Shown here: piece by piece, positions 1-32,913 of the stretch
Position numbering within the stretch: the stretch's first letter is position 1
How the letters are laid out: each line of letters begins with the position of its first letter
The notes under the pieces: model-generated
Database searches by the model: none
What the model was told of the DNA's origin: nothing
Seen by the model: the letters and a program-made list of their open reading frames with translations, nothing else
Virus record (IMG/VR): IMGVR_UViG_3300015263_000653
Location: 1-64,000 of that record
Reading direction: 5' to 3' (one strand)
Source of the DNA: a virus
DNA: 64,000 nucleotides
Program-made: the position numbers and the translations under genes

Positions 1-23
1 ACACTTCACAGGAGATCGAAATC

Positions 24-743
24 ATGTTTGGACACCAAATCGAAGGCGAGCGAGTTTGTTACTGGGGCGCACGAGCCATCTTCGAGCGTGGCAATATCGA
101 CTTGCTGCACGACCGGCAGTCTGGCGATGCCAACGATGGTCTCGTCAACTGGCTCAACGCCCGTGCTCTGCCGTGGCTCCGTGAGCGAGTCAAGGAAATC
201 GGGCTGGCGACCAACGATCCGCAGGAGATCGTGCTGAGCGAATTCAAGTACGAACTGCGTGCCAGCACCCATGCGTCCTACGGCTACCTTTACATTGGTG
301 CCGTCGAATGGCCCCAAGTGCCGTGCGAGCCGCACATCAACACGGCGACCAAAGTTGAGGAACCGGTTGTCTCGTGCAACGGTCAGATGTTCGTGGTGGA
401 CCCCGGCATGGCAGAAGTTGGCACTGAAGGGGTTGTCAAAGTGAACGGCATCGGCCCGGCGAAGGTGGTCGGATATTACAATGAGAACTATGCCGATCCC
501 TACAAGCTGGCCTGCCTCATGGTGGTGATGCTCTCGCCGCCCGACTGGTGGATCGCCCAGCGTCAGGAAGACGAGATTCGCAAGCTCGTGAAGTCTGGCA
601 AGATGCCCGCCAAGCGTGGGACGAAGCCGGAACATGGTGTCGGATCGCCAGCAGCGGTCAAGGAATACCGTAAGAACTGGAAGCCGTCGCCCTGTCCAAT
701 CTGGTCGAACGACTTCAAGACAGACAAGGCCGAAGCGGCGTAA
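24..743 (+). CDS. hypothetical protein (array cassette)
   Basis: GGAGA SD upstream; stop is the TAA of the repeat; ends KAEAA. Confidence 0.85.
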   Translation: MFGHQIEGERVCYWGARAIFERGNIDLLHDRQSGDANDGLVNWLNARALPWLRERVKEIGLATNDPQEIVLSEFKYELRASTHASYGYLYIGAVEWPQVPCEPHINTATKVEEPVVSCNGQMFVVDPGMAEVGTEGVVKVNGIGPAKVVGYYNENYADPYKLACLMVVMLSPPDWWIAQRQEDEIRKLVKSGKMPAKRGTKPEHGVGSPAAVKEYRKNWKPSPCPIWSNDFKTDKAEAA

Positions 744-789
744 CACCCGCTTCGATCTTGTAACACACAACACACACTGGAGACCAACC

Positions 790-1080
790 ATGACAGCTTT
801 CGTTGACAGCCCGGAGAAGGCCCGGCAAGACGCCGCTTTGACCAACCTCTGGTATCACGAAGACCAGTTCCGTGAATTCTTCACCAGTCCGTTCGATCAG
901 TACAAAGATCGCATCGGCCAACGCTTCACGGTGTTGGGTCACGACACCGAAGCGGAACAAGACGTGGTGGACGGTGGTGGCAACTTCGAGGAAATGTACA
1001 AGATTCGCTTCGAGGATGGCACCGAGATCACCGCTTGGGGACATGAAGTCTGCCTGCTCGACTACGACAAGTGCAAGTAA
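790..1080 (+). CDS. hypothetical protein (array cassette)
   Basis: AC-rich leader + GGAGA, ATG at 790, stop in repeat. Confidence 0.85.
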   Translation: MTAFVDSPEKARQDAALTNLWYHEDQFREFFTSPFDQYKDRIGQRFTVLGHDTEAEQDVVDGGGNFEEMYKIRFEDGTEITAWGHEVCLLDYDKCK

Positions 1081-1124
1081 CACCCACTTGTTGAGAGTCA
1101 ACCACAACACACTGGAGATCGACG

Positions 1125-1505
1125 ATGAAAGCACGAAACGCCCTGAAACTGATTCTGGAACTGCACCACAACCCGGATTGCAGTCCCACAGACAAGGTGG
1201 CTCTGGCCCCAATGACGTTGCGACAAGTGCGGGAAGCATTGGCTGAAATCGACGCCGATGATCCCCGTGTCAAGATGATCCGCAACGACCCGAAGGTGGG
1301 CAAGGGAACATGCACCAGCATCGACGAAGCCAACACCGACACCGAGTTGGTGGACAGGATGAACGAAGATGGTGTAACTCCGCTCAATGCTGTAAAATGG
1401 GCGAGAGAGTGTGAAGGTCTCTCGCTGGAACAGGGACTCAACCAACGGTGGGGCGAGGATGACGACCCCCAGTTGAAACGGTATCACGAATTTCACCAAG
1501 ACTGA
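1125..1505 (+). CDS. hypothetical protein (array cassette)
   Basis: leader + SD; first gene of a two-gene unit. Confidence 0.8.
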   Translation: MKARNALKLILELHHNPDCSPTDKVALAPMTLRQVREALAEIDADDPRVKMIRNDPKVGKGTCTSIDEANTDTELVDRMNEDGVTPLNAVKWARECEGLSLEQGLNQRWGEDDDPQLKRYHEFHQD

Positions 1506-1512
1506 GGAACCA

Positions 1513-1779
1513 ATGGCGCACGACCCGGAACTCGATCACCTGATTTACGATGGCATGGCTGTGAGCGACGGTCACACCACCATCGGATCGGTACGACCGA
1601 CAGGTAATGTCAGTGAATTGCCGCCGCTCACCCCGGAGCGGTTGCAAGACTGCCTCAGAGTGTTGAAGCATCTGGAGTCGATCAACCCCAAACTGCTGAC
1701 TGATCGTGAGCGGGAATGGGCAGATTTTGTTCGCTTCAAGATCGACGACTGGAACTCCGACTATGATCCACCCGAATAA
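1513..1779 (+). CDS. hypothetical protein (array cassette)
   Basis: GAGG SD; stop in repeat. Confidence 0.8.
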   Translation: MAHDPELDHLIYDGMAVSDGHTTIGSVRPTGNVSELPPLTPERLQDCLRVLKHLESINPKLLTDREREWADFVRFKIDDWNSDYDPPE

Positions 1780-1830
1780 CACCCGCTTGGTCGGTATCAC
1801 CAACACAACTTTTGCACTGGAGACCGACCA

Positions 1831-2265
1831 ATGAACCACTCAACCGAACCGCTTAGCGACGAAGTTCTCGCCGATCACTTTCGGCAACATGCTCCCGCCA
1901 TCGTGAAGTCATTGCAGGAAGCGGGACAACGCTTCCTTGGCGACAAGGCTCCGAGCATCGAATATCTGGAAACCGATCCCGTCATCCGCATCGACGGGAG
2001 TTTGGTGGACATTTCCCCGGACGATCAAGAACAGAAGTCGATTGGCCGAACGCTCCACGTTCCCGCCTTCGCCGTGGTGACTTACAAGCACTATGCGGCG
2101 ACTCGTGAGGAACCGGAAGACTGGGATGAAGTCCATCTGGAGACCGTTCGTGGTGTCCACAACGTGGCCCATGCCGCTCTGTCACACTGGTTTCGGTTGA
2201 CGACCGAAAGCTACTTCGACGCCGAAGGTGAAGCGGCTGCCTATGCTGAAATGGAAACCGACTAA
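1831..2265 (+). CDS. hypothetical protein (array cassette)
   Basis: leader + SD; stop in repeat. Confidence 0.85.
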   Translation: MNHSTEPLSDEVLADHFRQHAPAIVKSLQEAGQRFLGDKAPSIEYLETDPVIRIDGSLVDISPDDQEQKSIGRTLHVPAFAVVTYKHYAATREEPEDWDEVHLETVRGVHNVAHAALSHWFRLTTESYFDAEGEAAAYAEMETD

Positions 2266-2301
2266 CACCCGCTTGAACAGCACAACACCACAGGAGAACA
2301 A

Positions 2302-2532
2302 ATGAGTCAGAAACCCGAACTGTATCACGGCATCGAAGTCGCAACGGATGGATGCTACCATCTGTATGTTTCGACCGATGAAAACGAAGTGAACGAACAC
2401 TTCGCCGAACTCCGCAGGATGCTCGGCGATGAAATCGAGACCTACAGTCTCGGTACGATGGAAGCAACGTCGGTCGATGAAGCACTCGACAAGATTCGGG
2501 CAGGTGACTGGGATTATACCCAGTTGTGTTGA
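2302..2532 (+). CDS. hypothetical acidic protein (array cassette)
   Basis: leader + SD. Confidence 0.8.
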   Translation: MSQKPELYHGIEVATDGCYHLYVSTDENEVNEHFAELRRMLGDEIETYSLGTMEATSVDEALDKIRAGDWDYTQLC

Positions 2533-2641
2533 TACCAATTTAGGAGACAACCCAATGCTGGGATTATACCCAGCACTGACGCCAGTGCTAACACCCGCTT
2601 ACAAGACACACAACACACAACCCCGTTCAGGAGATCAAACC

Positions 2642-3235
2642 ATGTTGGAATTGTTTCAGAAAGACGTTGCTGGTGCTCTGGCACTCGTGCTCGATCTGGC
2701 ACAACAGAATGTCATCGAAGATGATGAAATGGCCGACGAAGCCGCCGAACAGGAGAAAGCCATCGAGACGGTTCAGGAATATCTGAATCTGCTCAACGAT
2801 GGCACCGACCTGACGCAAGCCGCCGTCGCCCTCGAAGAACTCGCCGGTGTGGACGTGGATACGTTCATGGATCGGGTCGAGAACGGCAACGATGATTACC
2901 TCGGCTGGTGGAAGCCGCTCTATGAGAAGATGGCAAGGCTGATCGAAGCGGCGAAGCAACCCCGCATCCTCGAAGTCCCGTTGCAAGGTCATGTCGTTCG
3001 CCTCTATCCCAGCGGCGACGGCGCACCGAACAACAAGCCGGTCCTCAAGGTGTTCAAGCTGGTGGAAGGGGAGCGTGTTCCGCTCGCCAGCATCGAACTC
3101 TCGGATTACGCCAGCATGGCCCAATACTTCCATGAGGAAGACATGATCGAAAATCTCGGTCTGGACCGTGACAGTCGCCAGTTCAAGAGCCGGGTCAAGG
3201 CGACTCGCAAGGCACTGGGCTACTCTCAACCCTAA
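2642..3235 (+). CDS. hypothetical protein (array cassette)
   Basis: start moved to the ATG after leader/SD; stop in repeat. Confidence 0.85.
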   Translation: MLELFQKDVAGALALVLDLAQQNVIEDDEMADEAAEQEKAIETVQEYLNLLNDGTDLTQAAVALEELAGVDVDTFMDRVENGNDDYLGWWKPLYEKMARLIEAAKQPRILEVPLQGHVVRLYPSGDGAPNNKPVLKVFKLVEGERVPLASIELSDYASMAQYFHEEDMIENLGLDRDSRQFKSRVKATRKALGYSQP

Positions 3236-3301
3236 CACCCGCTTGTGAGCCGGGGAGAACTACTCTCCCCGGCATCACACAACACACAACTGGAGATCGC
3301 T

Positions 3302-3808
3302 TTGGAAAACAACCTCCTCAAAACTCGCTTCGCCGTTCTCATTGAGACCACTCGTGGCGAGATCAAGATCGAACAGGCTGCTGACGAGAACACCGTGGGC
3401 TACCACTACAAGCCCATCGACAAACACGACCCGTATTTCAATGGGCCGATCACCGTCAACCCCACTGGCACGGTCAAACGCAAGCAAGTTGAAGAGGCAT
3501 TGACCCGCTCTTGGATCGAGCCGACGCCGGAAGCCTGCGAACAGGTGGAAGACGCCGCCTGCCTCGTTCATGCTCTGGTCGCTGCCCACAAGATGGAAGA
3601 CGTTGCCGTTCAGATGACTTCCGACGAATTCGGTGGTGAGCGATTTGGACCCTACACCACGGGCGCAAATGCCCTCAGTGCCATCGTTCGGCTGGCCGAA
3701 AAAGCCGATGAAGATCACGTCGAACGGACTATCGGACTGCTCGTCAACCCGGAAGAAACTGACGACGACGAAGATGATGATGATTTCGATGTTGGTGGGG
3801 AAGGATAA
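3302..3808 (+). CDS. hypothetical protein with acidic tail (array cassette)
   Basis: TTG start after GGAGATCGC. Confidence 0.8.
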   Translation: MENNLLKTRFAVLIETTRGEIKIEQAADENTVGYHYKPIDKHDPYFNGPITVNPTGTVKRKQVEEALTRSWIEPTPEACEQVEDAACLVHALVAAHKMEDVAVQMTSDEFGGERFGPYTTGANALSAIVRLAEKADEDHVERTIGLLVNPEETDDDEDDDDFDVGGEG

Positions 3809-3977
3809 CCCATGTGTCGTTGCCGAAAGAAAACCGCCAACGTACACTGGGTGAGATACCCCAGCGGCATCTGGAAAGCGATTTGTCTGGCTTGCTTCTG
3901 TCTTCGGTCTGACAGATACACCAGATAACACCCGCTTGAACATCGTCAACAACACAACCCTTTCAGGAGATCGCAGA

Positions 3978-4766
3978 ATGAGCTTTATGAAACCCCAACG
4001 CTTCAGCGACCTGTCTCCGACCGACATCTTCTATGACACGCATCGTCATGGATTTGACAACAAGGAGCAAGTCTGGATGAAGGTCACGGGCAATGCCGAT
4101 TTCAACGTCATCAGTGACGACGGCACTCGCACCGGCAAGATGCCCGAAGACAAGATGGTGACGGTCATCCGCAAGAAAATCCACATCCTCGATCTGCGTC
4201 AAGGCGACCAGTGCTGCATGGTGGCACACCTCGGCATCGGCTATATGACCTGCACCGTGCTGAAGATCGAAGACAAAGACGGTTATCGTCACATCACGTT
4301 CATCCGGCCCCTGATTCACGCCAGCGGTTTCGGTACGACCTGTCCCAGCGGATATGTCCACACCGAGAAGTTCACGGCAATGGTTCGCTGCGATGATCGG
4401 AAGCGGGACGATTACTACCATCTGGTCGGCGTCGATACCAGTGCCGTCTATGACGAATACAAGCTGGTTCTCAGCGGTGGTGGCTGTGCCAATCGGCATC
4501 GCATGGCAGTTTACATGCAACTGATGGGCGACAAGCGAAGCATCGCCGAAATCCTCTGCATGGATGGACTCAAGATCAACTCCGAGTGTATCGGCCTGCT
4601 GATGAACAACTTCATCAAGGTGCGGGAGATTCCCCCGGAATACCCGGATCGTGATGACGAAGCCGAAAGCCGGTTCATCAAGGAACTGCAAGCCAAGGCC
4701 GATCACACGAAGTGGGAACGCAAGTACCTCGGCATGGTCGAAGCAAGCCGGGCGAAACTCGTCTGA
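3978..4766 (+). CDS. hypothetical protein (array cassette)
   Basis: leader + SD; TGA stop in repeat variant. Confidence 0.85.
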   Translation: MSFMKPQRFSDLSPTDIFYDTHRHGFDNKEQVWMKVTGNADFNVISDDGTRTGKMPEDKMVTVIRKKIHILDLRQGDQCCMVAHLGIGYMTCTVLKIEDKDGYRHITFIRPLIHASGFGTTCPSGYVHTEKFTAMVRCDDRKRDDYYHLVGVDTSAVYDEYKLVLSGGGCANRHRMAVYMQLMGDKRSIAEILCMDGLKINSECIGLLMNNFIKVREIPPEYPDRDDEAESRFIKELQAKADHTKWERKYLGMVEASRAKLV

Positions 4767-4837
4767 CACCCGCTTGGATACCATCGGGGAACAACTCCCC
4801 GATGGTATTCCAAAATTTGTATTCAGGAGACAACGGA

Positions 4838-5104
4838 ATGACAACCAAAACCGTCGATGAACTCATGCAAGATTTGGAGAGAAGCGAAAGGGATTTGACT
4901 CTCTCCATGATGCGGCGTGCAATCGCCCATGTCAAGCTGATCGACCCAGAACTCTTCTGGGACGTGTATGAAACCGTGGTGCATTTCACGGGCGACTTCC
5001 CCGAAGACGAAGGCTGGGGAACTTCGGATACCAGTGCCGTCCTGCGTGCTGTCTCCGAGCGGATCGACGCCGTAAAAGCCTATCAGCAGCAAACACCCGC
5101 TTGA
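4838..5104 (+). CDS. hypothetical protein (array cassette)
   Basis: SD; reads into the repeat (…TPA) and stops at the TGA of GCTTGA. Confidence 0.8.
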   Translation: MTTKTVDELMQDLERSERDLTLSMMRRAIAHVKLIDPELFWDVYETVVHFTGDFPEDEGWGTSDTSAVLRAVSERIDAVKAYQQQTPA

Positions 5105-5142
5105 AGCGAAGACAACACAACACCAATCAGGAGATCGCCAAC

Positions 5143-5382
5143 ATGGCACACTTTGCACCGGAACATCAAGAACTGATCGAGAAGCACAACTTGGGAGAAG
5201 GCTCGATCATCGGTGGCCCACTCTACGATCCTCGACGGTTCACCCCCGTTTGCACTCCAGAACTCGAAGCCGATCTGGTCAGGCTCAACATCCCGTTCGA
5301 TAGAACACGAGCCGACAACAAGCAACATCCCGACTACGGCAAGCCGCTGTTCGAGTTTGTCATCTACAAGCAACGTGACTGA
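5143..5382 (+). CDS. hypothetical protein (array cassette)
   Basis: leader + SD; stop in repeat. Confidence 0.8.
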   Translation: MAHFAPEHQELIEKHNLGEGSIIGGPLYDPRRFTPVCTPELEADLVRLNIPFDRTRADNKQHPDYGKPLFEFVIYKQRD

Positions 5383-5425
5383 CACCCGCTTGGTGGGAGT
5401 CAACAACACACACCGGAGATCGCAA

Positions 5426-5791
5426 ATGATGACCGACGAAATCACACAGGAAACGCTCGACAAAGCCGCCGAATTGGGACGGGAAATGGCGAAGCGGGAC
5501 ACTTGGATTCAAGCTGTTCACGATGTGCGAGTGGACAACCCGAACGACTTCGGGGAATACCAGCAAGCCCATCGTGCCGCTTGGGAAGAGACCTGCCAAT
5601 GGGAGCAACTGTGGGGCAGTCGCCTCACAACTCTCACCGAAGAGGCAGCCGAAGCCCAAGACGTGGACAAGTCAACGAACTGGGAAGCGTGGTACTACGG
5701 TTTCTACGATCCCGCCAAAGATGCCATGTGGGATGCGTGGGAAGAGGAACGAGACCTCGCTGCCTACTGGAAACAGAACGTCGCCAAGTAA
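5426..5791 (+). CDS. hypothetical Trp-rich protein (array cassette)
   Basis: leader + SD; stop in repeat. Confidence 0.85.
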   Translation: MMTDEITQETLDKAAELGREMAKRDTWIQAVHDVRVDNPNDFGEYQQAHRAAWEETCQWEQLWGSRLTTLTEEAAEAQDVDKSTNWEAWYYGFYDPAKDAMWDAWEEERDLAAYWKQNVAK

Positions 5792-5836
5792 CACCCGCTT
5801 GGTCAGCGTCAACAACATAACCTCATTGGAGTCAAC

Positions 5837-6508
5837 ATGACCATTCAACTTTACGCTCCCGGCGATGGTGCTCTGTCTTTCACGAAGACAGCAAACCAGT
5901 ATGTCGGTAACTGCCGACAAGACGTTGCCACTGGTGAGCCGATCACTCGTGAAGAGGCAGAAGCAAGAGTCGCCGAAGAGGGAGACCGGTTCAAGGATTA
6001 CCTGCTGATCGAGATCGGCAAAGACCAGTCCTACACTCGCATGGTCGAAGCCCCTCGGAAGAAATGGGCAAGGCGAGCCGATCCCCCGGAAATGGTCGAA
6101 GAACTCGTTCTCGTTCCGCCTCAGTTCCGCCTCTGTGCCCCGGTCAAGCGAGTCGGCGATAACAAGCTGCAACTCAATGGCACGGTTTACACCTATGCCG
6201 TGGATGAAAGCAACATTTTCTGGAGTCGGGACGGCGAATACACCGACAACAACCTCTCCATCACGTTCCATCATTGCATCGTGGCGGAAGGCGAAACGCT
6301 GGTCGATGAACCAGACCGAGAACTCCGCAATGTCTCCACCCGTGGCGCACTGCGATGGTTCCTCAACCATGAGGCAATCATTCTCAAGCAGTATCCACAA
6401 CAGGACTCAACGCTGGACGCCACAACTCAGACGTTGAAAGAGACAGTGGCGAGTCTTCGCCGAGCCGGAATGTCCGACGAACAGATCATCGGCCTGACGA
6501 ACGAGTAA
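5837..6508 (+). CDS. hypothetical protein (array cassette)
   Basis: SD; stop in repeat. Confidence 0.85.
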   Translation: MTIQLYAPGDGALSFTKTANQYVGNCRQDVATGEPITREEAEARVAEEGDRFKDYLLIEIGKDQSYTRMVEAPRKKWARRADPPEMVEELVLVPPQFRLCAPVKRVGDNKLQLNGTVYTYAVDESNIFWSRDGEYTDNNLSITFHHCIVAEGETLVDEPDRELRNVSTRGALRWFLNHEAIILKQYPQQDSTLDATTQTLKETVASLRRAGMSDEQIIGLTNE

Positions 6509-6527
6509 CACCCGCTTGGAGGATGTA

Positions 6528-7076
6528 ATGACACCGGACGAACAAATCCAATACCTGCGGGGACTGCAACCCGGAGAGAAGGTGATTGAGACCGAACGAT
6601 CTTCTTGCATGTATGGAAAGACTGGTGTTGTTTACATCAGTGAAAACATCGGCCCCTCTTTTGGCAGCCTTTGTGTCAAGTGGGAAGATGGGATGGGAAC
6701 GTCGGTGACTCACGGGACTCGCAGAATTTCTGACACACAACACACAGGAGATCGCTCAATGTTCAACAAGCCGTTCAAACTGCCTTATATGGGAAGCGAA
6801 TTCGATTGCGTGCTGGTCGAACAGCACTATCGCAATGATCGCCTCGCCATCGAAGTCATCGACCGGGCCGAAGGTGAGCCGTTCACCACCCTCACCGTCA
6901 ACATCCCCGAAGTGCCGCTGGCCGACGACGAGATTCTCGTCAAGACGTGGAGTGAGAACGAGACCATCGCTCCCGCTGTCCTCGCCGCCTTCCCCAATCA
7001 CTTTGAAGATACTGGTCGCACCGTGCCTGCCGGTCATGCCCGTGCCGCCATCTGGAAGATCAAGGGAGCGGCGTAA
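6528..7076 (+). CDS. fused cassettes; the C-terminal part (internal start 6759) resembles DUF4313
   Basis: Y.NDRLAI…EPF.TLTVN.P…DEILVKTWSENE motif; internal leader + SD at 6732-6758 is in frame. Confidence 0.7.
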   Translation: MTPDEQIQYLRGLQPGEKVIETERSSCMYGKTGVVYISENIGPSFGSLCVKWEDGMGTSVTHGTRRISDTQHTGDRSMFNKPFKLPYMGSEFDCVLVEQHYRNDRLAIEVIDRAEGEPFTTLTVNIPEVPLADDEILVKTWSENETIAPAVLAAFPNHFEDTGRTVPAGHARAAIWKIKGAA

Positions 7077-7122
7077 CACCCGCTTGGCTAGAGTACACAC
7101 AACACACTTTCAGGAGATCGCA

Positions 7123-7458
7123 ATGAACAAATCCACGAGCGATATGCTCCACCATCTGTCCAACCTCGAAGTCGATGAATTGGATGCCGCCATCAACCAT
7201 CTGACTCGTGCTCGCAAGAGCCGTGCCGAAATGCGGTCGCTAGTTGCCTTCAAGATCGGCGACAAAGTGACGTTCCCGTGGCACACGAAAGATCAGATGC
7301 ACACCGGAGAATTCGTCGGAACATATCACGAAACCGGCAAGATTTGTGTCGCCAGCGTCATCGACCACGAAGGTAAACCGTATTCTGGAACTTGTGTGGT
7401 CGATGCCCTCAAGGTCGATCACTTGGAAGGCGACGAAGACGAAAAGGAAGCGGCGTAA
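7123..7458 (+). CDS. hypothetical protein (array cassette)
   Basis: leader + SD; ends EKEAA; stop in repeat. Confidence 0.85.
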   Translation: MNKSTSDMLHHLSNLEVDELDAAINHLTRARKSRAEMRSLVAFKIGDKVTFPWHTKDQMHTGEFVGTYHETGKICVASVIDHEGKPYSGTCVVDALKVDHLEGDEDEKEAA

Positions 7459-7474
7459 CACCCGCTGGGACAGC

Positions 7475-7840: not shown

Positions 7841-7888
7841 CACCCGCTTGTCGGTCATCACAACAACACAACACACAGGAGATCGCAG

Positions 7889-8254: not shown

Positions 8255-8300
8255 CACCCGCTTGGCATCTGTCACAACACAACACACAGGAGATCGAGCC

Positions 8301-25035: not shown

Positions 25036-25082
25036 CACCCGCTTGGAGAGACGGATTTCAGATTGTCCGCCATGTTCACCGG

Positions 25083-25343: not shown

Positions 25344-25394
25344 CACCCGCTTGGAAAGCGTAACAACCCAACACAACTTTTGGAGTGCTGAACC

Positions 25395-25658: not shown

Positions 25659-25667
25659 CACCCGCTT

Positions 25668-25748
25668 GGGGCAGTGTGAGAAGTGAGTCCTGTGTCCGAA
25701 AGGGCAACGTAACTGCGAATTAACGCACGCCGTTCTCACACTGCCCCT
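25668..25748 (+). other. non-coding hairpin cassette
   Basis: GGGGCAGTGTGAGAA…TTCTCACACTGCCCC 15-bp stem, then TTTT and the next repeat. Confidence 0.75.
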
Positions 25749-25881
25749 TTTTAACACCCGCTTGTGGTGTATGAGGGAAAGGCAAAAGGCACTCTGAGAA
25801 CCCTACGGGGGGAATGAGAGAATCCCACGCCAGAGCCGTTGTGTCTGGGACACAGCCCCTCTAACACCCACTTGGAGGACA

Positions 25882-26040
25882 ATGATGGAAGACGGGACAA
25901 GAGTGTATGTGCCAAGCGTTGGCAAGAGCGGAACGATGAAGTTCTCAGTGCCCGGCAATGGCACGTTCCGCTGGTATATCGTCGAGTTCGACGACGGCAC
26001 TGAGGATCGTTTTGTCCTTGAGGATTTGCAGCGGGAGTAA
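25882..26040 (+). CDS. small hypothetical protein (52 aa, below the ORF-track cutoff)
   Basis: GGAGG SD; MMEDGTRVYVPSVG…DLQRE; stop in repeat. Confidence 0.75.
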   Translation: MMEDGTRVYVPSVGKSGTMKFSVPGNGTFRWYIVEFDDGTEDRFVLEDLQRE

Positions 26041-26088
26041 CACCCGCTTGAGTCCTGTACAACACACAACACCTTTTGGAGATCGCTG

Positions 26089-26403
26089 ATGTTGACAGAC
26101 GAACAAAAGAAAGAGCGTCGGTTTCTCAGTCACAACATTGAACTGGGACAACGGGGCCGCAAGCGGATGCCGTTCAGCGAAGTCTGTATGCACATGCGGA
26201 TCGCTGGCAAGTACATGGATTTCGAGTTGCTCAACAAGGAGTATCCCGGAGTCCAGTTGTACGAAGACGGTCGCCCGTTCTCTGGCTCGATCACGACCGG
26301 CGAAGCTGGCATCTTCCATGACTCGGAGCGGGGATATTACTACTACCCCCACGAGTACAACGCCGAGAACATGGACGACGCCGCCGACAACCCGCCCAGT
26401 TGA
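26089..26403 (+). CDS. hypothetical protein (array cassette)
   Basis: leader + SD; stop in repeat. Confidence 0.85.
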   Translation: MLTDEQKKERRFLSHNIELGQRGRKRMPFSEVCMHMRIAGKYMDFELLNKEYPGVQLYEDGRPFSGSITTGEAGIFHDSERGYYYYPHEYNAENMDDAADNPPS

Positions 26404-26482
26404 CACCCGCTTGAACCTCACCTCAGTAACTCAAAGAGTTACTGAGGTGGACAACCCCGAACCCATTTGGAGGAACACCCAC

Positions 26483-26686
26483 TTGAAAGACAGAACAACC
26501 CTTGGCCTGATGGCAGCACTGCTGAGCATGGGCGGCATCATCCCGATGCCATCGTCGGAACCTCGTCGCCGTGTGTATCGGTCGCCAGAGGAACGGCGAG
26601 ACCTGAACGCCGTCAAGGCGGAAAAGAAGCGAAAGCGGAAGATTTCGCAGAAGTCCCGCAAGGCCAATCGACGCAAGGCGGCATAA
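26483..26686 (+). CDS. small basic protein with hydrophobic N-terminus
   Basis: GGAGG SD, then a TTG start supplied by the repeat variant; ends RRKAA. Confidence 0.65.
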   Translation: MKDRTTLGLMAALLSMGGIIPMPSSEPRRRVYRSPEERRDLNAVKAEKKRKRKISQKSRKANRRKAA

Positions 26687-26736
26687 CACCCGCTTGAACA
26701 ACGTACAACACACAACACTTTCTGAGGAGATCGCTG

Positions 26737-27129
26737 ATGAGTTTCAAGTTTCGCCACGTTACCGTCAAGCTCGGCAACATGCGGAAAGAGGCCGAGTTCG
26801 TGGTCTGTCCGGTGAGCAATACCGCTCCCCATGAGATCACGATTCAGAGTGACAAGCGGATTGCCCGTGTCAATCTGGAGACGAAAAAGGTCATCGTGAG
26901 CGATGGCAAGGGCGGGCATCCGGGCTTCCACAAGCTGCAAGCGTTCTGTGGAGCGAAGGAATACGACGCCCCGCAAGACCTGCTCGACCAGTTGTCCGCA
27001 CTGGAAGAGGATCACGGCCCGATGGAGTCTGGCCCGGTGGTTGTCATGGATGAGAACGGCCCGGCCCCCAGCGTCCACGCTCGGCGTGAGACTGTCCCCA
27101 GCGGCCCGGTTTCCATCTTCGACCTGTAA
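26737..27129 (+). CDS. hypothetical protein (array cassette)
   Basis: leader + SD; stop in repeat. Confidence 0.85.
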   Translation: MSFKFRHVTVKLGNMRKEAEFVVCPVSNTAPHEITIQSDKRIARVNLETKKVIVSDGKGGHPGFHKLQAFCGAKEYDAPQDLLDQLSALEEDHGPMESGPVVVMDENGPAPSVHARRETVPSGPVSIFDL

Positions 27130-27197
27130 CACCCGCTTGGAGACTGTGAGACAGGAGTGGCCTGTCTCACAGTCAATCCAACTTTTGGAGTGGACCA

Positions 27198-27521
27198 ATG
27201 GCGAAAGACAAGCCAAAGATTGAGATCAAGTATGCTGACCGTGTTGTCGGCAGCTACACCCTGTACCGCTCAATGCCAAAGGGCGCACGAGTCACCCAAT
27301 GGGGAACATTCTTCCCCGGTCAAGGCGAGGATGGTTATGGTCGCAAGATCACAACCGACATCATCTTGATTTTCAATGGCGAGAGCAAGCGGAAATACCG
27401 GGTCTATGCGACCTGCTTTTCCAACTGTGCAAGCCACTGGATCACCTATCAGGGGCAGACGTTGCACCTTGGCACTCACTTTCAGGATGAGATCAAGCCG
27501 GAAAGTGAGATCCCGAAGTAA
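27198..27521 (+). CDS. hypothetical protein (array cassette)
   Basis: SD; GYGRKITT…RVYATCFSN motif; stop in repeat. Confidence 0.85.
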   Translation: MAKDKPKIEIKYADRVVGSYTLYRSMPKGARVTQWGTFFPGQGEDGYGRKITTDIILIFNGESKRKYRVYATCFSNCASHWITYQGQTLHLGTHFQDEIKPESEIPK

Positions 27522-27573
27522 CACCCGCTTGGAAGGTGTCAGCAATGGGGCTGACACCTTTCTGGAGAACACA

Positions 27574-27906
27574 ATGCACCAACTCGTTATCGCCCATCAC
27601 CCGCAGGACGTTGACCCTTCCGCCCCGATGGCGGACTCGCCGTTCTGGGCGTGGCTGGAAGAACACCCGCTTTCAGTCTGTCACGTTGCACTGCTCAAGT
27701 ATCTCGGAGCGGAGAATTATCCACGAGAGATGCGGCGTGGAATGCTCAACGAAACTGAGCACATGTGCTACAAGCACATCCATGCTCACTTTTGGTGGAC
27801 TCGGTTGCGGCAGCCGAAACCGGTGGTTGAGAAGACCCCGGAGCCGATCACGCCCCCGGAGTTGATTTCAGTCATCAGCTTCGATGGCATCAAGCGGCTG
27901 GTCTGA
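27574..27906 (+). CDS. hypothetical protein (array cassette)
   Basis: SD; stop in repeat. Confidence 0.8.
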   Translation: MHQLVIAHHPQDVDPSAPMADSPFWAWLEEHPLSVCHVALLKYLGAENYPREMRRGMLNETEHMCYKHIHAHFWWTRLRQPKPVVEKTPEPITPPELISVISFDGIKRLV

Positions 27907-27957
27907 CACCCGCTTGGAGAGTGTACAACACACAACACACTTTTGGAGATCGCCATC

Positions 27958-28290
27958 ATGGCACGTTGCGAAGACTTCCCCTGCTGTGGGCATGAACCCG
28001 GATGCTGCCCGGACTACGATGAGTCGGGCCGTCAGTTGAACATGGTTTGCGTCTGTGGGGCAAAGCTGCCCATCGACAGCCGCTACTCGATCTGTGCGAG
28101 TTGTATGCGAGACCCGGACGACCCCGATTTCGACCGGGATTTCGATGACGACTTCGAGGATGACGAAGAGGATTTCGACGAAGAGGACGACTACGAGCGT
28201 CGTCAGGACGAGATTCTGGAGCGTCAGGAACTCGAAGACTTCGAGCAGGCCGACGAATACTTCGGTGGCTACGGCGGGGAGGACTGGTAG
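27958..28290 (+). CDS. Cys-rich N-terminal, highly acidic protein
   Basis: CEDFPCCGH…CC…C.C…C..C followed by a D/E tract. Confidence 0.8.
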   Translation: MARCEDFPCCGHEPGCCPDYDESGRQLNMVCVCGAKLPIDSRYSICASCMRDPDDPDFDRDFDDDFEDDEEDFDEEDDYERRQDEILERQELEDFEQADEYFGGYGGEDW

Positions 28291-28495
28291 GACACCCGCT
28301 TGGAATACACTGGGGGAGACCGGGTAAAACGCCTCGGTCCCCAACTATCAAACCTAAAGCGACCCGACAGGCCGCACCCGGTTCTCCCCCTTTGATTTAC
28401 CTTTTTCGTCACTGGGCGACGGCGAATGTCCAGAACACAACGCCAGTAACACCCGCTTGGACAGCGGTAACACAACACAACTTTTGGAGTCAGCC

Positions 28496-28675
28496 ATGAC
28501 ACCGGCTCAACGTCAGCAGCGGCAAAACATTCGCAATGCGTATCTTGTGGCATCCATCGAAGAGATGGAAGCTGGCAAGGCTCAACAGAACGATTTCGGC
28601 AAGAGCGTCCTGCAAGAGATGATCGACGAGTGCAAACAGCACGGCGTTGACAACTATGGGAAGACTCCCCTCTAA
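28496..28675 (+). CDS. hypothetical protein (array cassette)
   Basis: leader + SD; stop in repeat. Confidence 0.8.
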   Translation: MTPAQRQQRQNIRNAYLVASIEEMEAGKAQQNDFGKSVLQEMIDECKQHGVDNYGKTPL

Positions 28676-28724
28676 CACCCGCTTGGGGAGTGTACAACAC
28701 ACAACACCTTTTTCGGAGATCGTG

Positions 28725-29228
28725 ATGAAAACCGTCACACGTCAAAGCCAGTGGGGGACTGGCAACATGGTTGTCGAGATCAGCGATGGTGGGATTGACT
28801 ACTGCAACCCCGATGCACTGTCCGCAAAGTATCGGGGCGAGTTCGAGGAATTTGCCGATCCTCGTGAGGCAGTGGAAACCGCTATCACCATCGCTCAACA
28901 GTGGCAGGCGGATGCTCCCGATAAGACCATCCTGATTGACCACGGTGGCACCGGTGGAATGACCATGCCATTCGATGGGATGGAACTGGGAGAGGAAACC
29001 TACACCGCTCTGAGGGAGTGGGCAAACAGCCAGTATGAGGAACTGGAGAAATGTTGCCGCTGTGGCGACATCCTCGGCAAAGAGCGATGGACACACCCGG
29101 AACTCTGCGAAGAGGAAAAGTTCTGCTCTGAGAACTGCTGTGACAACGCCTACTGGGACATGATGAAAGAACTCGAAGAGGAGGAGGAGGAGGAGGACGA
29201 GGATGAAGAAGTAGAGGACGACGAGTAA
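28725..29228 (+). CDS. hypothetical protein with zinc-finger-like C..C…FCSENC and acidic tail
   Basis: leader + SD; stop in repeat. Confidence 0.85.
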   Translation: MKTVTRQSQWGTGNMVVEISDGGIDYCNPDALSAKYRGEFEEFADPREAVETAITIAQQWQADAPDKTILIDHGGTGGMTMPFDGMELGEETYTALREWANSQYEELEKCCRCGDILGKERWTHPELCEEEKFCSENCCDNAYWDMMKELEEEEEEEDEDEEVEDDE

Positions 29229-29296
29229 CACCCGCTTGGAAGGTGTCAGGCAGGAGAATGGGCCTGCCTGACACTTTTCACAACTCGGAGAACACC

Positions 29297-29503
29297 ATGC
29301 CAAAGGCGCAATCGCAGTACAAGCCTATCGGCCAGTATCGGTTTCCCGCAATGGGCGGGCCGACTGTGACCTATGGGCAGAAACCCTACTACGGCAGGCG
29401 GATGCAGTATTTGCCAGCCGTGAGAACGACAATGCTTCAAGTCCAAGTGATGGTTCTCGGCTCGTTGATGTGGATCAACGTGAGGCCCGAGGATCTGAAG
29501 TAA
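29297..29503 (+). CDS. hypothetical protein (array cassette)
   Basis: SD; stop in repeat. Confidence 0.75.
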   Translation: MPKAQSQYKPIGQYRFPAMGGPTVTYGQKPYYGRRMQYLPAVRTTMLQVQVMVLGSLMWINVRPEDLK

Positions 29504-29553
29504 CACCCGCTTGGGTGATGTAACATCAGCAACCCCCGTAAGGGAGAAGAACA

Positions 29554-29703
29554 GTGCATTTCGACAAACGCAAGGCCAAACGTGCCGACAAACGACGCCG
29601 AGACAAGGAGATCGAGCGTTGCAAGAGGGAGCACGGGAATCGGGGTGAAAAGAACACTCGGAAGCGTCCCCGATTCGACGAGTTTGACAGGGAAGCGGCG
29701 TAA
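29554..29703 (+). CDS. small basic peptide (49 aa, below the ORF-track cutoff)
   Basis: GGGAG SD, GTG start, MHFDKRKAKR…DREAA; stop in repeat. Confidence 0.65.
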   Translation: MHFDKRKAKRADKRRRDKEIERCKREHGNRGEKNTRKRPRFDEFDREAA

Positions 29704-29752
29704 CACCCGCTTGGGGACTGTCAATCAACAATCCAACTTTTGGAATGAAGCC

Positions 29753-29938
29753 ATGAAGGTCGCCACGCATCGTTACCCCCGGACTGCTCAGGAGTCTCGG
29801 GAAGTCATCACCGACGTTGATTTCAGCGTCAAGGCCCGCAAGCGGAAGTTGCCCAACTGCTGGGACGACAAGCCACGGGGAGACCACGATCACCGCTCGT
29901 GGAAGCGTCATCGCCGCAACCAGTGGAAGGCAGCCTAA
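29753..29938 (+). CDS. small basic protein
   Basis: RYPRT…LPNCWDD…RSWKRHRRNQWK; ends WKAA. Confidence 0.8.
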   Translation: MKVATHRYPRTAQESREVITDVDFSVKARKRKLPNCWDDKPRGDHDHRSWKRHRRNQWKAA

Positions 29939-29988
29939 CACCCGCTTGTAGGCTGTACAACACACAACACCTTTTCAGGAGTCGAGCG

Positions 29989-30360
29989 ATGAACTTCGCC
30001 GTCAACACCAAAGACAGCATCTTGGCAACCTTGCGGGATGCGATTGATTTGCAGGATTACATGGTCAAGGCCGACCACATTCTGGATGCCCTGATGACGA
30101 CGGCAGGCGTCTGGACTGAGTGTGGCTATGCCTACAAGGCGACTGAGATCGCCAATATCATCGGCCAGCGGTTCACCGATGAGATCGGCAATTGCCATCA
30201 CCACAAGACCCACGCCAAGATCGACACCATGCGGATCAAGGCGTACACCGTCGCCCGGTTCTTCTGTGAACAGCAGTACGAGTATCGGGAAGCCCAGCAA
30301 GCGGAGATCGACGCCATGTTGGGCATCGAACACAAGACCGATATGGAGCTTGCGAGCTAA
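29989..30360 (+). CDS. hypothetical protein (array cassette)
   Basis: leader + SD; stop in repeat. Confidence 0.85.
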   Translation: MNFAVNTKDSILATLRDAIDLQDYMVKADHILDALMTTAGVWTECGYAYKATEIANIIGQRFTDEIGNCHHHKTHAKIDTMRIKAYTVARFFCEQQYEYREAQQAEIDAMLGIEHKTDMELAS

Positions 30361-30472
30361 CACCCGCTTGGAAGGTGTTGAGAGGGTGCTGTCTGGAGGC
30401 GACAGCCAAGTGTCACCCAGTCTCAGGTGAAACAGCCCGATCAACACCCGCTTGTAAAGTGTCACCGGTGGC

Positions 30473-30680
30473 AAGGACGACCGGGGAGAACACTGAGACA
30501 ACCGATTAGCCCACCGCTACCTACTGTCTTTACCGAAACTGCTGTGACAGCCGCCAGTCTGATGACGGGTTTACCGTACCTTGGCCGAGGCGTTGTCCAC
30601 TGGAAACGGCGACAGCAAAAGTAGGCAGAGTGGACGGTGTGCGAATCGAGTCTCAGTGAAGTATCCCCGGTCCTCTCCTT
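30473..30680 (+). ncRNA. rod-shaped structured ncRNA candidate (~210 nt, 6S-like size and shape)
   Basis: Nested pairs AAGGA/TCCTT, GACCGGGGA/TCCCCGGTC, CACTGAGAC/GTCTCAGTG, CGATT/AATCG, CACCG/CGGTG, CCTACT/AGTAGG, TGCTGT/ACAGCA, CCAGT/ACTGG; ends at the next repeat (30681). Confidence 0.65.
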
Positions 30681-30729
30681 CAACACCCGCTTGTACAACG
30701 TAACAACAACACCTTCTGAGGGCCACAAG

Positions 30730-30870
30730 ATGAATCAGCGTCGGATCTACCAACTCATGACGGAGTTGGGCAAGGAACTGGAGTCGTACAATCCGCCCGG
30801 CAATGTCAAGTTCAAGGCGGCAATCGCTGGCCTGCGAGCGGCCATCAAGAGTTTGCGAGTGTTCTTCTAA
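30730..30870 (+). CDS. small hypothetical protein
   Basis: leader + GAGG SD; stop in repeat. Confidence 0.7.
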   Translation: MNQRRIYQLMTELGKELESYNPPGNVKFKAAIAGLRAAIKSLRVFF

Positions 30871-30921
30871 CACCCGCTTGGACAACGTAACAACACAACC
30901 CACTTCTCAGGAGTTCACACG

Positions 30922-31155
30922 ATGAACCACAATCCCGGCGTCAACCGCATGAAGAACATCGCCCGCAATGGCTTCCTGTCCTCGCTGGTCGCCAAGGCCC
31001 ACGCCGGGCAGCGGCCCGACATCACCCTCAAGCCGAAGGGCGTCACCTGTGAGGAACTGGAGAAGTACCTCAAGGCCAACAACTGCGGCTGGACCAAGCA
31101 CGCTGGCGGACGGTATGTCATCGGCTCCCTGCGACCGGCCCGCAAGGCAGCGTAA
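30922..31155 (+). CDS. hypothetical protein (array cassette)
   Basis: leader + SD; ends ARKAA. Confidence 0.8.
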   Translation: MNHNPGVNRMKNIARNGFLSSLVAKAHAGQRPDITLKPKGVTCEELEKYLKANNCGWTKHAGGRYVIGSLRPARKAA

Positions 31156-31284
31156 CACCCGCTTGGAGAGTGTCAGCCAACAACCCCTCAGTTACTCTTT
31201 GAGTAACTGAGGGGGAGCGGCTGGCCGGGACCAACACCCGCTTGGACCGTGTTAAGACCACAACACCTTTTTGGAGATCGAGTC

Positions 31285-31857
31285 ATGTTGAAGTTGTTTG
31301 TTCTGGAGTGCAGCACCGTCGAGGAACTGGAATCGGCAATGTCCCGCATGGGGCTGAGCAAGGTCAAGCCCGAACTGGCTGTGCTGGTCACGCCCGGTGG
31401 CAACGTCGAGGAGCCGACGCCAACGCCGCCTGCCCCCAAGGCTGACACCCGCTTGGAAAGTGTTGAGACGGAAACGACTCAACCGCCAGCCCCCAAGGCT
31501 GACGCCAAGCCGCCCCGCAAGTCGAAGCGGAAGGGTGGCGGGGGTGGCTTCCGCAAGGCAGCCCCCAAGACGTTCACCGATTTGTCGAAGCTGGAAGGCA
31601 TCGGCATCTATCACAAGGCCGATGGCACGCAGAAGGTTGTGGGCATCATCGGACGGAGCGAAGGCAAGGGCGGCAACGCTGGTCACGAGATTCTGTGGCT
31701 CGGCAACGTCGAGCGGAAGGACGGCGAGATTGTGTGCTGGTCCTTCGCCAACGGCGACCCGTGGACGCACAACGCCACCCGCTTCCCGGAAACGATCACC
31801 GATCTGGCCCCGTACAGCCCGGACTACGCCGAACTGCTGGTCGAGATGGTGGGCTAA
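31285..31857 (+). CDS. hypothetical protein with Pro/Lys linker containing a repeat copy
   Basis: PPAPKAD occurs twice around an in-frame DTRL; KPELAVL resembles KPELVAL of the next gene. Confidence 0.85.
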   Translation: MLKLFVLECSTVEELESAMSRMGLSKVKPELAVLVTPGGNVEEPTPTPPAPKADTRLESVETETTQPPAPKADAKPPRKSKRKGGGGGFRKAAPKTFTDLSKLEGIGIYHKADGTQKVVGIIGRSEGKGGNAGHEILWLGNVERKDGEIVCWSFANGDPWTHNATRFPETITDLAPYSPDYAELLVEMVG

Positions 31858-32008
31858 CACCCGCTTGGAAAGTGTCGAGAGGGGGACGACAACCCCTCTC
31901 GCTCTTTCCTCTCTCTCACTCTCAACTGCGAGTGAGTGAGAGGGGAGAGACAGACTAACACCCGCTTGTAAGTTGTGAGAGGACACAACACTAACCGAAA
32001 GGGATCGA

Positions 32009-32467
32009 ATGCTGCAAGAGTTGAAAGGGATCGTCGAGGGCATGGGCAAGAGCAAAGCCAAGCCCGAACTGGTCGCTCTGATCGAGCGAGCCGAGACGCA
32101 AGGCCAAGCCGCTGATCCGAAGCGATGGGCCTATGCGGGAGTCACCTTGATGGCCGTGATGAGTGCTGGACTCAACGGCTACGCCAACGCACAGCACGCA
32201 ACTGTGCCGATGGCAGGGTGGGCGATGGGGATTGCAATCCCCGCCATCGTCCTGATCCTCGCCCGTGTGGCAGGGATCAACTGGAAGGCAGGACGCAAGG
32301 CGATGGCGAAGGCCGGGGCTGGCGTCGGCATCGGATTGCTTGTCTTGTCAGTGTGGCACTGTGCTACTAGCATCAGCCTGCTGACTGGCAGCCATGTGCT
32401 ACTCGCACTGCCGATGGCACTGGCTATTGATGCGGGGCTGGTGTACTGCGAGTGCAACACATTGTAA
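32009..32467 (+). CDS. membrane protein (~4 TM), last cassette
   Basis: hydrophobic segments; stop in the final repeat. Confidence 0.85.
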   Translation: MLQELKGIVEGMGKSKAKPELVALIERAETQGQAADPKRWAYAGVTLMAVMSAGLNGYANAQHATVPMAGWAMGIAIPAIVLILARVAGINWKAGRKAMAKAGAGVGIGLLVLSVWHCATSISLLTGSHVLLALPMALAIDAGLVYCECNTL

Positions 32468-32913
32468 CACCCGCTTGTATTATGTAAGAGGGACACATGA
32501 CTCACTCGCTGAATCGCAGCGAGTGAGTGTGTTGCAAAAATTGTAATTGAGAAACTCTCAATTTTTTTTGTGCCATGTGGCCCATGGGGGAGGCACCCCC
32601 GCCGCTATGTCACCCCCCTCTCTTATATTAACAAGAAGAAATTTTTCAGACGCCTGCGCAGCAAAAACCGAAACTCCGAAACTTCTTTGGAGTGAGGCTA
32701 TATCTCAGAAAAGGAGAAGAAAGCGATGTTGCAAAAAATCCGCCGACAGAAAATCGTCGCACGCATATTGCGAGCGGTAGCCGAAGAAACTCAAGAGCCG
32801 TCTCTTCAGCAGATGAAAGAGGTGGCAGCCCTCGCCTGCAAGATTGCGGCGAAGGTCCATCCAGATCCGAAGCATCGGTGCGAGCACTGCGAACGACGGC
32901 AGCGTCAGTACGC

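Follow-up and report, generated by a model that had tools for sequence, protein, structure and literature searches.

We describe a 13-nt box that precedes nearly every gene in a dense array of small phage genes and that we read, with a confidence no better than even and from sequence patterns, as a promoter outside the sigma-70 class that doubles as a recombination hotspot. The array occupies the left half of the window (the whole 64,000-nt stretch analyzed, positions 1 to 64,000 of IMG/VR record IMGVR_UViG_3300015263_000653). The source is a roughly half-megabase phage of Planctomycetota. Its 90-kb record (G000) was 18% complete (CheckV) and encodes a tape-measure protein and baseplate genes, so the large phage proposed in the initial annotation is a large tailed phage.

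The exact 13-mer, TAACACCCGCTTG, occurs 65 times in the window, always on the + strand, between positions 1777 and 32477 (shuffled sequences predict 0). Array copies were counted with the 10-base core, CACCCGCTTG, allowing up to 1 mismatch, which gave 109 matches in the window (~4.8 expected by chance): 106 on the + strand at 744-32477 and three on the − strand, each with one mismatch. All 106 + strand copies share the orientation of their genes, at about one box per 300 bp. The initial annotation had counted about 100 co-oriented 13-mers and none on the minus strand; the number stands for the core, with only 65 copies exact, and the strand rule stands for the exact 13-mer, with the three one-mismatch cores as exceptions. 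A scan of both strands of the 89,856-bp contig gave a non-uniform distribution, with + strand copies confined to 744-32477 and none in the other 57 kb, in agreement with the abrupt stop near 32.5 kb and the empty right half seen earlier. The array was also said to run off the left edge, and base 1 of the window is indeed base 1 of the contig, whose end truncates the array; because the first ORF (24-743) has homologues, 50-59% identical, within arrays L221, L246, and L134, the array continues upstream in relatives.

The box is bipartite, consisting of R-A-CACCCGCTTG, about 5 variable bases, and Y-R-T. In the sequence logo, T-A-A-CACCCGCTTG is followed by G/A, then Y15-R16-T17 and A19. Position 16, which lies 7 nt past the last invariant base, holds a purine in 101 of 106 boxes of this array and in 271 of 279 from relatives; at position 15, 82 of 106 and 246 of 279 boxes, respectively, have a pyrimidine. 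The result is a conserved pyrimidine-purine step 6 nt past the core.

Between the boxes lie 81 co-oriented ORFs (median, 104 amino acids; 84% coding) and ~16 box-to-box units without an ORF, slightly above the earlier estimates of ~78 and ~15. No paralogues were found among the 81 ORFs (all-against-all BLASTP), 1 of 74 ORFs scanned had a Pfam match, and Rfam and tRNA scans of the window returned no match. The unit layout proposed from the first reading was confirmed by the logo and a survey of junctions: a stop codon and box, a CA-rich leader, a GGAG(ATCG) ribosome-binding site (RBS), and ATG. For 67 ORFs, the stop codon is the three bases preceding the core, either TAA or TGA and never TAG. 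In the long class of junctions, the ATG lies 32 to 43 nt past the core; in the short class (13 junctions), the RBS is fused to the box end, and the start codon lies 6 to 14 nt past the core. Neighboring junctions were slightly more alike (10.8 versus 10.0 identities per 30 nt), a weak effect reached in 15 of 2,000 permutations. The annotated parts of the window are as follows.

24..743, + strand: first ORF, 239 amino acids, ending at the first box.
744..32477, + strand: box array with 106 boxes (core, ≤1 mismatch), 81 small ORFs, and ~16 non-coding units; left side lost at the contig end.
6506..6530, + strand: typical short-class junction; the box runs directly into GGAG, with ATG 9 nt past the core.
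10862..11044, + strand: structured non-coding unit filling the box-to-box space (minimum free energy [MFE], −79 kcal/mol; z, −5.3).
13427..13474, + strand: typical long-class junction; TAA plus box at 13427-13439, variable spacer, CA-rich leader, AGGAGATCG, and ATG at 13472.
16347..16423, + strand: box-hairpin-box unit without an ORF; hairpin from +10, with an identical 8 nt after both boxes.
18392..18565, + strand: unit with a box inside a longer ORF; upstream stop lost (GAA for TAA).
23900..23918, + strand: palindrome AGTWACTC-N3-GAGTWACT, one of five copies, in a box-hairpin-box unit.
30361..30870, + strand: stretch with two units (~30373-30462 and ~30651-30865) absent in a ~92% identical relative (run X4).
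30455..30683, + strand: structured non-coding unit between two boxes (MFE, −96 kcal/mol; z, −4.8).
32465..32640, + strand: array end; last box, hairpin, GTGTTGCAAAAATTGTAAT, short hairpin with T-run, and CACCCCCCTCTCTTATATT.

This phage is not alone in having the box, which the initial annotation did not foresee: identical letters occur in integrase-bearing islands of Planctomycetota and in many phage-like contigs that differ widely in GC content. Box arrays were found in ~30 metagenome contigs (GC content, 39 to 58%). A second huge phage, G001 (239-kb record, 46% complete), carries 10 boxes, nine of them within 8 kb (3-10 kb) and the tenth alone before a PARP-like gene, 18 kb away from the rest. 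The genes behind its boxes encode a PARP-like ADP-ribosyltransferase, an ArdC-like anti-restriction protein, AAA ATPases, and a sigma factor and are typical early genes. The proteins of the two phages overlap in three weak matches only, and the common boxes are their main link. Scans of IMG/VR for further relatives yielded almost solely single chance matches, and only two of its records bear boxes, compared with dozens of metagenome contigs. Several high-GC contigs (L142, L200, L204, and others) were rejected as arrays; they hold several cores without stop codons and are tandem coding repeats. In the literature, a full-text search for the core sequence returned unrelated primers only, and nothing pertinent came up for huge phages of planctomycetes together with promoter motifs.

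Four Planctomycetota genomes have one mobile island each with a box array; these small islands bear the box on each of their genes, lie beside defense genes, and encode an integrase, a primase-helicase, ArdC, and an AlpA-like helix-turn-helix (HTH) regulator. A host regulon was considered and rejected, single copies outside the islands being at chance frequency, within coding sequence, and without a leader or RBS. The box ties these phages to a host phylum and provides a simple sequence tag by which related phage fragments and mobile islands overlooked by virus detection tools can be picked out of metagenomes.

A promoter is favored because the boxes, all co-oriented, sit at a narrow distance before RBS-bearing start codons and because divergent box pairs have no upstream transcript to process or block. 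Such pairs stand back to back at the array starts in G004, G005, and L171, 40 to 110 bp apart, each box facing its own outward gene, and the intervening spacers have no common sequence. Boxes also precede a tRNA-Lys gene in L210 and, in the window, two RNAs with strong structure, and the signal is therefore not translational. The core is identical across the 39 to 58% GC arrays and the planctomycete islands despite their differing genes, which points to a conserved reader. The initial annotation had left three options, namely, recombination site, promoter, and RNA-processing site; the divergent boxes, the RNA genes, the pyrimidine-purine step, and the lack of any other promoter signal favor the second.

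As a promoter, the invariant 13 bases would act as a long "-10-type" element, followed by 5 or 6 variable bases and the pyrimidine-purine step at 15/16, where we infer that transcription starts. The bacterial -10 element ends at -7, and the proposed geometry would fit bacterial RNA polymerase. Past the start, a short, unstructured CA-rich leader and a strong RBS would lead into the gene, and the genes driven in this way would be expressed early, being of the host-takeover kind. The reader could be host RNA polymerase equipped with an alternative sigma factor from phage or host, or some other factor of the phage. Terminator-like T-run hairpins close the array in this phage, L157, and L234 (the array end is kept in the latter two, with the hairpin as a strong GC stem plus T-run), and G001 encodes two FliA-like sigma factors. 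Searches for PF00940, PF00562, and PF00623 gave no match in the two phage records, which are 18% and 46% complete, with a PF00940 control search that was empty in all genomes. The terminators and the FliA-like sigma factors fit the host core polymerase; the empty polymerase searches agree with it but, in records this incomplete, are uninformative. Should the box prove to be a promoter, it would represent a new promoter class and give Planctomycetota, for which genetic tools are few, an expression signal that is compact, portable, and apparently orthogonal.

The box resembled no described promoter class. Sigma-70-like promoters were not enriched in the 13- to 33-kb region (4, of which 2 were on the + strand, versus 7.2 ± 2.6 expected). 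The sigma-54 consensus is TGGCAC-N5-TTGC, with GG at -24 and GC at -12; the box reads TRACAC-N4-TTG, without the GG and with a spacing one base short, and a sigma-54 promoter was rejected. The T4 late promoter, TATAAATA, is a single-element phage promoter read by gp55, a phage sigma factor. Promoters of this type share with the box one conserved block ending ~6 to 7 nt before the start (here, the proposed start), the lack of a -35 element, and identity over a wide group of related phages. The box differs in its unrelated, GC-rich sequence, in its length (13 nt versus 8), and in serving small early-type genes, not late structural genes.

Three features of the array argue against a promoter. In the 13 short-class junctions, the RBS overlaps the box end and so precedes the proposed start; such genes would depend on read-through transcripts. 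Perfect stems of ≥8 bp follow 74 of 373 boxes, mostly from +10 to +16 and few with a T-run, and many of these hairpins begin at +10 to +13, ahead of the proposed +16 start; such hairpins fit better with an RNA terminus at the core's 3' edge. Finally, a box directly before the hairpin in box-hairpin-box units has no obvious use as a promoter. The same features suit a box that acts in RNA, where a sequence-specific factor would cut or mark a polycistronic transcript at the 3' edge of UAACACCCGCUUG and yield single-gene mRNAs and small structured RNAs starting with the leader or hairpin. Of the 74 boxes followed by a strong hairpin, 47 have its start directly past the core (+10 to +16), structured units span box to box with closing stems that end at the next box, short-class junctions require an RNA containing the box end, and box-hairpin-box units would free a conserved palindromic hairpin as a small RNA. 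All five copies of the palindrome (the others at 24238, 24711, 26425, and 31190) lie in such units, and it recurs in related arrays L210 and L165.

We nonetheless consider RNA processing rather unlikely. The 40 to 110 bp between back-to-back boxes at island starts hold no shared promoter, a single box stands before the PARP-like gene of G001, 18 kb from the others, and no enriched sigma-70-type promoter would feed the array. The box has no fold of its own: only a 3-bp ACA/TGT pairing is possible within it in this phage, and covariation gives no test of this pairing, as neither side varies. No candidate nuclease was found. Complementarity to 16S rRNA was not above chance; in two carrier genomes, the longest run was 7 to 8 pairs, below the median for shuffled boxes, and pairing of the box with 16S rRNA was rejected.

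Repression at the box is another reading, in which a monomeric repressor on the asymmetric 13-mer would block transcription at each junction and silence a lysogen or island. The model is the stoperators of cluster A mycobacteriophages (L5 gp71 sites), which number 20 to 36 per genome and are spread genome-wide (PMC9283540). The layout is alike in that both are asymmetric 13-mers in many copies, in one orientation to transcription, in short intergenic spaces and often at gene ends (PMC9283540), and integrated chromosomal islands, which carry an integrase and an AlpA-like HTH protein, must stay silent. Here, however, >100 copies of an unrelated sequence are confined to one block, leaving 57 kb of the contig box-free, and 9 of 10 copies in G001 fall within 8 kb. 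The narrow start codon spacing and the fixed offset to the pyrimidine-purine step suggest initiation, not blockage, and a roadblock needs neither; it would still require a separate promoter, of which none was seen, and no repressor candidate emerged from the two phage records, which are 18% and 46% complete. We regard a stoperator-like role as distinctly unlikely.

Whichever factor reads it, the box marks where units are gained, lost, and reordered. Among internal ends of homology blocks, 57 of 99 fell ≤25 nt from a box (11.7 expected; maximum, 23 in 2,000 randomizations), in a test that cannot tell "at the box" from "between genes" because every gene boundary has a box. In the ~92% identical relative X4, from another study, two units are missing exactly from box to box and others are joined in a changed order, and the unit at 18392-18565 is a free-standing cassette elsewhere in array L165. 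The synteny breaks at the repeat that the initial annotation suggested looking for among relatives are therefore present, and its modular shuffling stands for content and order; a dedicated recombination system is less well supported. On the scale of >100 units, the array shows a huge-phage store of small ORFan genes exchanged unit by unit. An abundance of identical short repeats, with shuffling as its by-product, accounts for this exchange better than a dedicated system does: direct repeats (~100, of 13 to 25 bp, in one orientation) would recombine so that whole units are deleted, inserted, or reordered, which would keep the region hyperplastic and could account for the box-hairpin-box units and the boxes inside fused ORFs.

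The closest precedent is the promoter-early stem-loop (PeSL) cassettes in hyperplastic regions of T4-type phages, whose repeats combine a strong sigma-70-like early promoter (-35/-10) with an adjoining stem-loop terminator and whose neighbor exchange gives mini-circles (Arbiol et al. 2010, PMC2839356). Both systems place short regulatory repeats among early genes of a large phage that are small, non-essential, and mostly ORFans, pair stem-loops with some repeats, and delete, insert, or replace genes between close relatives by repeat recombination. The repeat-bounded indels between ORFan genes that characterize PeSL were found here (Pfam matches in 1 of 74 ORFs, no paralogues, and the breakpoints). 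The box, in contrast, shows no -35/-10 pattern in its logo, and most units lack a stem-loop; it is far denser, with one copy for each gene (106 within 32 kb) joined directly to the stop codon, and is identical across 39 to 58% GC phages and chromosomal islands.

It is very improbable that a dedicated site-specific recombinase uses the box as its crossover site, in place of attC in an integron-like system. The units do behave as box-to-box modules, the box has two parts separated by 5 variable nt, and every planctomycete island examined has a tyrosine recombinase (PF00589) inside its array. This recombinase, however, is more simply explained as the integrase of the island itself, adjacent to an AlpA-like excisionase-type protein, and a recombinase search in 329 kb of phage DNA (G000 plus G001) found none, PF00589 being absent. 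Recombination between 13- to 25-bp direct repeats suffices for the indels. As in integron arrays, unrelated small genes are co-oriented, bounded by repeats, and gained or lost as whole modules, but the box is asymmetric, with no second inverted arm and no attC-like fold, and each cassette has its own RBS and box, unlike promoterless integron cassettes. The initial annotation was right to exclude a canonical integron and also CRISPR: CRISPR arrays have repeats of 23 to 50 bp and short spacers of similar length, whereas the intervals here span 60 to ~1,000 bp and hold whole genes.

For the promoter, there is a modest possibility of a narrower arrangement, in which a phage-borne or phage-made factor reads the 13-nt box, the promoter is private to mobile elements of Planctomycetota, and the islands switch on at infection. 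The reader could then be, for example, the FliA-like sigma factors of huge phages or a virion protein, and the islands would be satellites or infection-triggered islands. No box reader was found among the conserved island proteins with ESM Atlas, which gave an HTH/AlpA-like lead for one and nothing for the other. The box is common to megaphages and to integrase-bearing islands beside defense genes, and this phage-island regulatory link is testable in two cultured strains, Novipirellula rosea JCM 17759 and Roseiconus nitratireducens JC645. A fifth Planctomycetota genome carried just three boxes, all on one contig.

The 89,856-bp IMG/VR virus record containing the window was 18% complete (CheckV), so that the whole genome would measure about half a megabase, and was organized as follows.

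1-32.5 kb, plus strand: array, part one of the record
32.5-65 kb, mostly minus strand: auxiliary genes (Rieske oxygenase, epimerase, M14 peptidase, AAA ATPase, RNase H-like protein, CCA-adding enzyme)
65.6-89.8 kb, plus strand: tail module (1763-aa tape-measure protein, baseplate proteins)

A separately assembled 23-kb contig, from what is likely the source sample, covered 29.2-32 kb of the window, reaching the end of the compared stretch, with most of its length lying outside it. A motif scan of both strands recovered 65 exact copies of the 13-mer box (none expected by chance) and 106 copies of its 10-base core with at most one mismatch, all on the plus strand between 744 and 32477, with no plus-strand copy in the other 57 kb of the contig. 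The initial annotation's account of about 100 co-oriented repeats punctuating more than 32 kb and stopping abruptly near 32.5 kb was borne out; three one-mismatch core matches lie on the minus strand, a number within chance expectation.

The array comprised 81 co-oriented open reading frames (ORFs; median, 104 amino acids) and about 16 units without an ORF, some of them box-hairpin-box, close to the 78 and 15 first estimated. A TAA or TGA stop codon lay immediately 5' of the core for 67 of the 81 ORFs, and TAG occurred at none of the array junctions. No paralogues were found among the array ORFs, in line with their earlier description as mutually unrelated; 1 of 74 scanned ORFs matched Pfam, and 6 of 74 matched PHROGs of unknown function. 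Judged by homology, these are real genes, since for about 20 of them other arrays hold homologues at 40-65% identity. Some 10 boxes lie within longer ORFs (window 18392, 11680, 20808, 27664, 31446, and others), which may be fusions or decaying genes; at 18392, GAA replaces the upstream TAA stop, and the box is translated (H-P-L-G) in a frame that carries on into the next cassette.

The logo of the window boxes read T-A-A-C-A-C-C-C-G-C-T-T-G, followed by less marked G10 and A11, variable positions, a pyrimidine at 15, a purine at 16 (101/106 boxes), T17, and A19, numbered relative to the core. Relatives (279 non-redundant copies from 29 other loci) had the same pattern, with G or A at -2, A at -1, an invariant core, W10, Y15 (246/279), R16 (271/279), T17, and A19. 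At -3, T derives from the stop codon, and any base occurs where no ORF precedes the box; in the related array L210, the stop sits just 5' of GA-CACCC. Junctions had two layouts, a long class with a CA-rich leader, then GGAG(ATCG), and the ATG 32-43 nt 3' of the core, and a short class (n = 13) with the ribosome-binding site fused to the box end (CTTGGAGA) and the ATG 6-14 nt 3' of the core. The unit originally described (gene, stop, box, AC-rich leader, GGAGA(TCG), ATG) was thus recovered at window junctions. A strong hairpin followed 74 of 373 box copies, its 5' arm starting mostly at +10 to +16 and never within the core.

Scanning of metagenomes yielded more than 120 contigs with two boxes about 320 nt apart, of which about 30 (GC content, 39 to 58%) carried true arrays, defined by co-oriented boxes abutting stop codons and followed by a leader and ribosome-binding site; the highest density was 30 boxes per 11.8 kb. 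High-GC contigs lacking the stop codons were rejected as arrays, being tandem coding repeats of an unrelated kind. Ten copies were present in another huge phage record, G001 (238,888 bp; 46% complete), preceding genes for a PARP-like ADP-ribosyltransferase, AAA ATPases, an ArdC-like anti-restriction protein, and a sigma factor.

All multi-copy box loci in the genome collection were from Planctomycetota (Novipirellula rosea JCM 17759, Roseiconus nitratireducens JC645, and three metagenome-assembled genomes [MAGs]). Boxes clustered in one 6-11 kb island in four of the five genomes, with an additional 5-copy cluster on another contig of MAG G005, while the fifth genome (G006) had only three copies, on one contig; copies elsewhere were at chance level and within coding sequence. 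This distribution places the box among the mobile elements of the phylum, and a regulon of the host's own was rejected. We infer that Planctomycetota are likely the phage hosts. The islands share a gene order of ArdC, a non-coding unit, a RuvB-like AAA+ protein, an AlpA-like HTH protein, a tyrosine recombinase, and small unknown genes, with a Prim-Pol/D5-type primase-helicase upstream in one; box-preceded genes there and in G001 are of the early, anti-defence kind. Both the N. rosea and Roseiconus islands adjoin restriction and CBASS-type (SMODS) defence genes. Beside the N. rosea island (L309/L310; C6, 80-120 kb) are two type I restriction-modification systems, a CBASS-type cyclase with a patatin effector, and a sigma-54 activator; a SMODS cyclase, a methylase, and helicases lie near that of Roseiconus.

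From sequence, we favour a promoter over other readings of the box, because it always points the same way as its gene and keeps within a narrow range of distances from the start codon. Three island arrays open with a back-to-back pair of boxes separated by 40-110 bp, each facing its outward gene, and the spacers between them had no sequence in common. A processing site or roadblock would have no substrate there, which weighs against an RNA-level boundary or processing site, a reading we consider unlikely, and against a stoperator-like repressor site, which we hold more doubtful still. The stoperator layout is very similar to that of the box (PMC9283540), but its genome-wide spread fails here, where boxes are confined to the array, and a promoter would still be needed. 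Three points weaken the promoter reading and speak for an RNA-level role: the short-class ribosome-binding site lies upstream of the start proposed under the promoter model, many hairpins begin a few bases 5' of that start, and the first box of box-hairpin-box units has no clear use as a promoter.

Boxes also precede a tRNA gene and genes for structured RNAs, which argues that the signal does not act in translation. The conserved pyrimidine-purine step lies exactly 7 nt 3' of the end of the invariant block, the geometry of the -10 element and start site in sigma-70-family promoters of bacterial RNA polymerase, and no other promoter signal was enriched in the array. Orientation, divergent boxes, RNA genes, and geometry therefore favour the promoter among the three options initially offered, the others being RNA processing and recombination. 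A search for polymerases, sigma factors, and recombinases, as had been suggested, found two FliA-like sigma factors in G001 and neither a phage RNA polymerase (records 18% and 46% complete) nor a recombinase in 329 kb of phage DNA. The array ends in terminator-like hairpins with T-runs in three relatives; together with the sigma factors and the polymerase result, this fits host core polymerase, which, guided by a putative factor, would read the box. The identity of this factor, and a possible use of the box by chromosomal islands to sense infecting phages, can be put to the test.

Phages with 55% and 40% GC shared a conserved array end, in the order last box, GTGTTGCAAAAATTGTAAT, terminator-like hairpin with T-run, then CACCCCCCTNTCTTATATT, and two units without ORFs folded far better than shuffles.

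Window 32465-32640; L157 about 1799-1990; L234 about 6690-6890: array end in the window and two relatives
Window 10862-11044, plus strand: structured non-coding unit, box to next box (z, -5.3)
Window 30455-30683, plus strand: structured non-coding unit, box to next box (z, -4.8)

Neither structured unit matched Rfam. The opening bases of the first (gagcaggggg) reappear in units of related arrays L230 and L210, which makes it a candidate for a conserved phage RNA. A palindrome, AGTWACTC-N3-GAGTWACT, had five window copies (23900, 24238, 24711, 26425, 31190), all inside box-hairpin-box units, and occurs also in L210 and L165; as its sequence is kept, and not pairing alone, it suggests a protein-binding site or recognised RNA hairpin. 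At 1250-1530 of L157, a 60-bp unit (box plus hairpin) is present in five tandem copies, a local amplification of a non-coding unit.

Cassette order and content differed among relatives, the comparison proposed at the outset. A 552-nt contig from another study (X4; ~92% identical) lacked two exact box-to-box units, and further X4 contigs joined units in another order immediately 3' of a box. Genes 22269 and 22587 are adjacent in the window's phage and L185 and separated by three extra units in L165, one of which equals window unit 18392-18565. Among loci 78-99.5% identical, a box lay within 25 nt of 57 of the 99 internal homology-block ends (11.7 expected; maximum of 23 in 2000 randomisations), left ends piling up at -2 to -5; as a box stands at every gene boundary, this count does not separate breaks at the box from breaks between genes. 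A dedicated recombination site is the least likely reading, and a very improbable one, given the recombinase result and a box without a second arm. The exchange of units fits the PeSL model put forward for T4-type phages, where modules are shuffled through recurring promoter cassettes (PMC2839356), although the putative promoter here is of a different, undescribed type and its density and conservation are much greater. We regard the box array as a genuine and striking signal, apparently new to the literature and best filed with phage promoter-cassette arrays.

The window's phage and G001 had almost no common genes in the record parts compared; common to both were the box and a second enriched 11-mer, CAAAAWTTGTA (11 copies in the 89,856-bp contig and 17 in G001 versus about 0.1-0.2 expected).

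Window 4811, 9167, 13153, 19847, 32535, plus strand: 11-mer
Window 23547, 41775, 49855 and contig 64641, 78088, 81773, minus strand: 11-mer

Within the array, it lies 3' of a GC-rich hairpin and directly 5' of the ribosome-binding site of three genes; outside, it also occurs within ORFs on either strand. G001 also encodes a tRNA (L117:15921-15992) with anticodon CTA, of the amber suppressor type.
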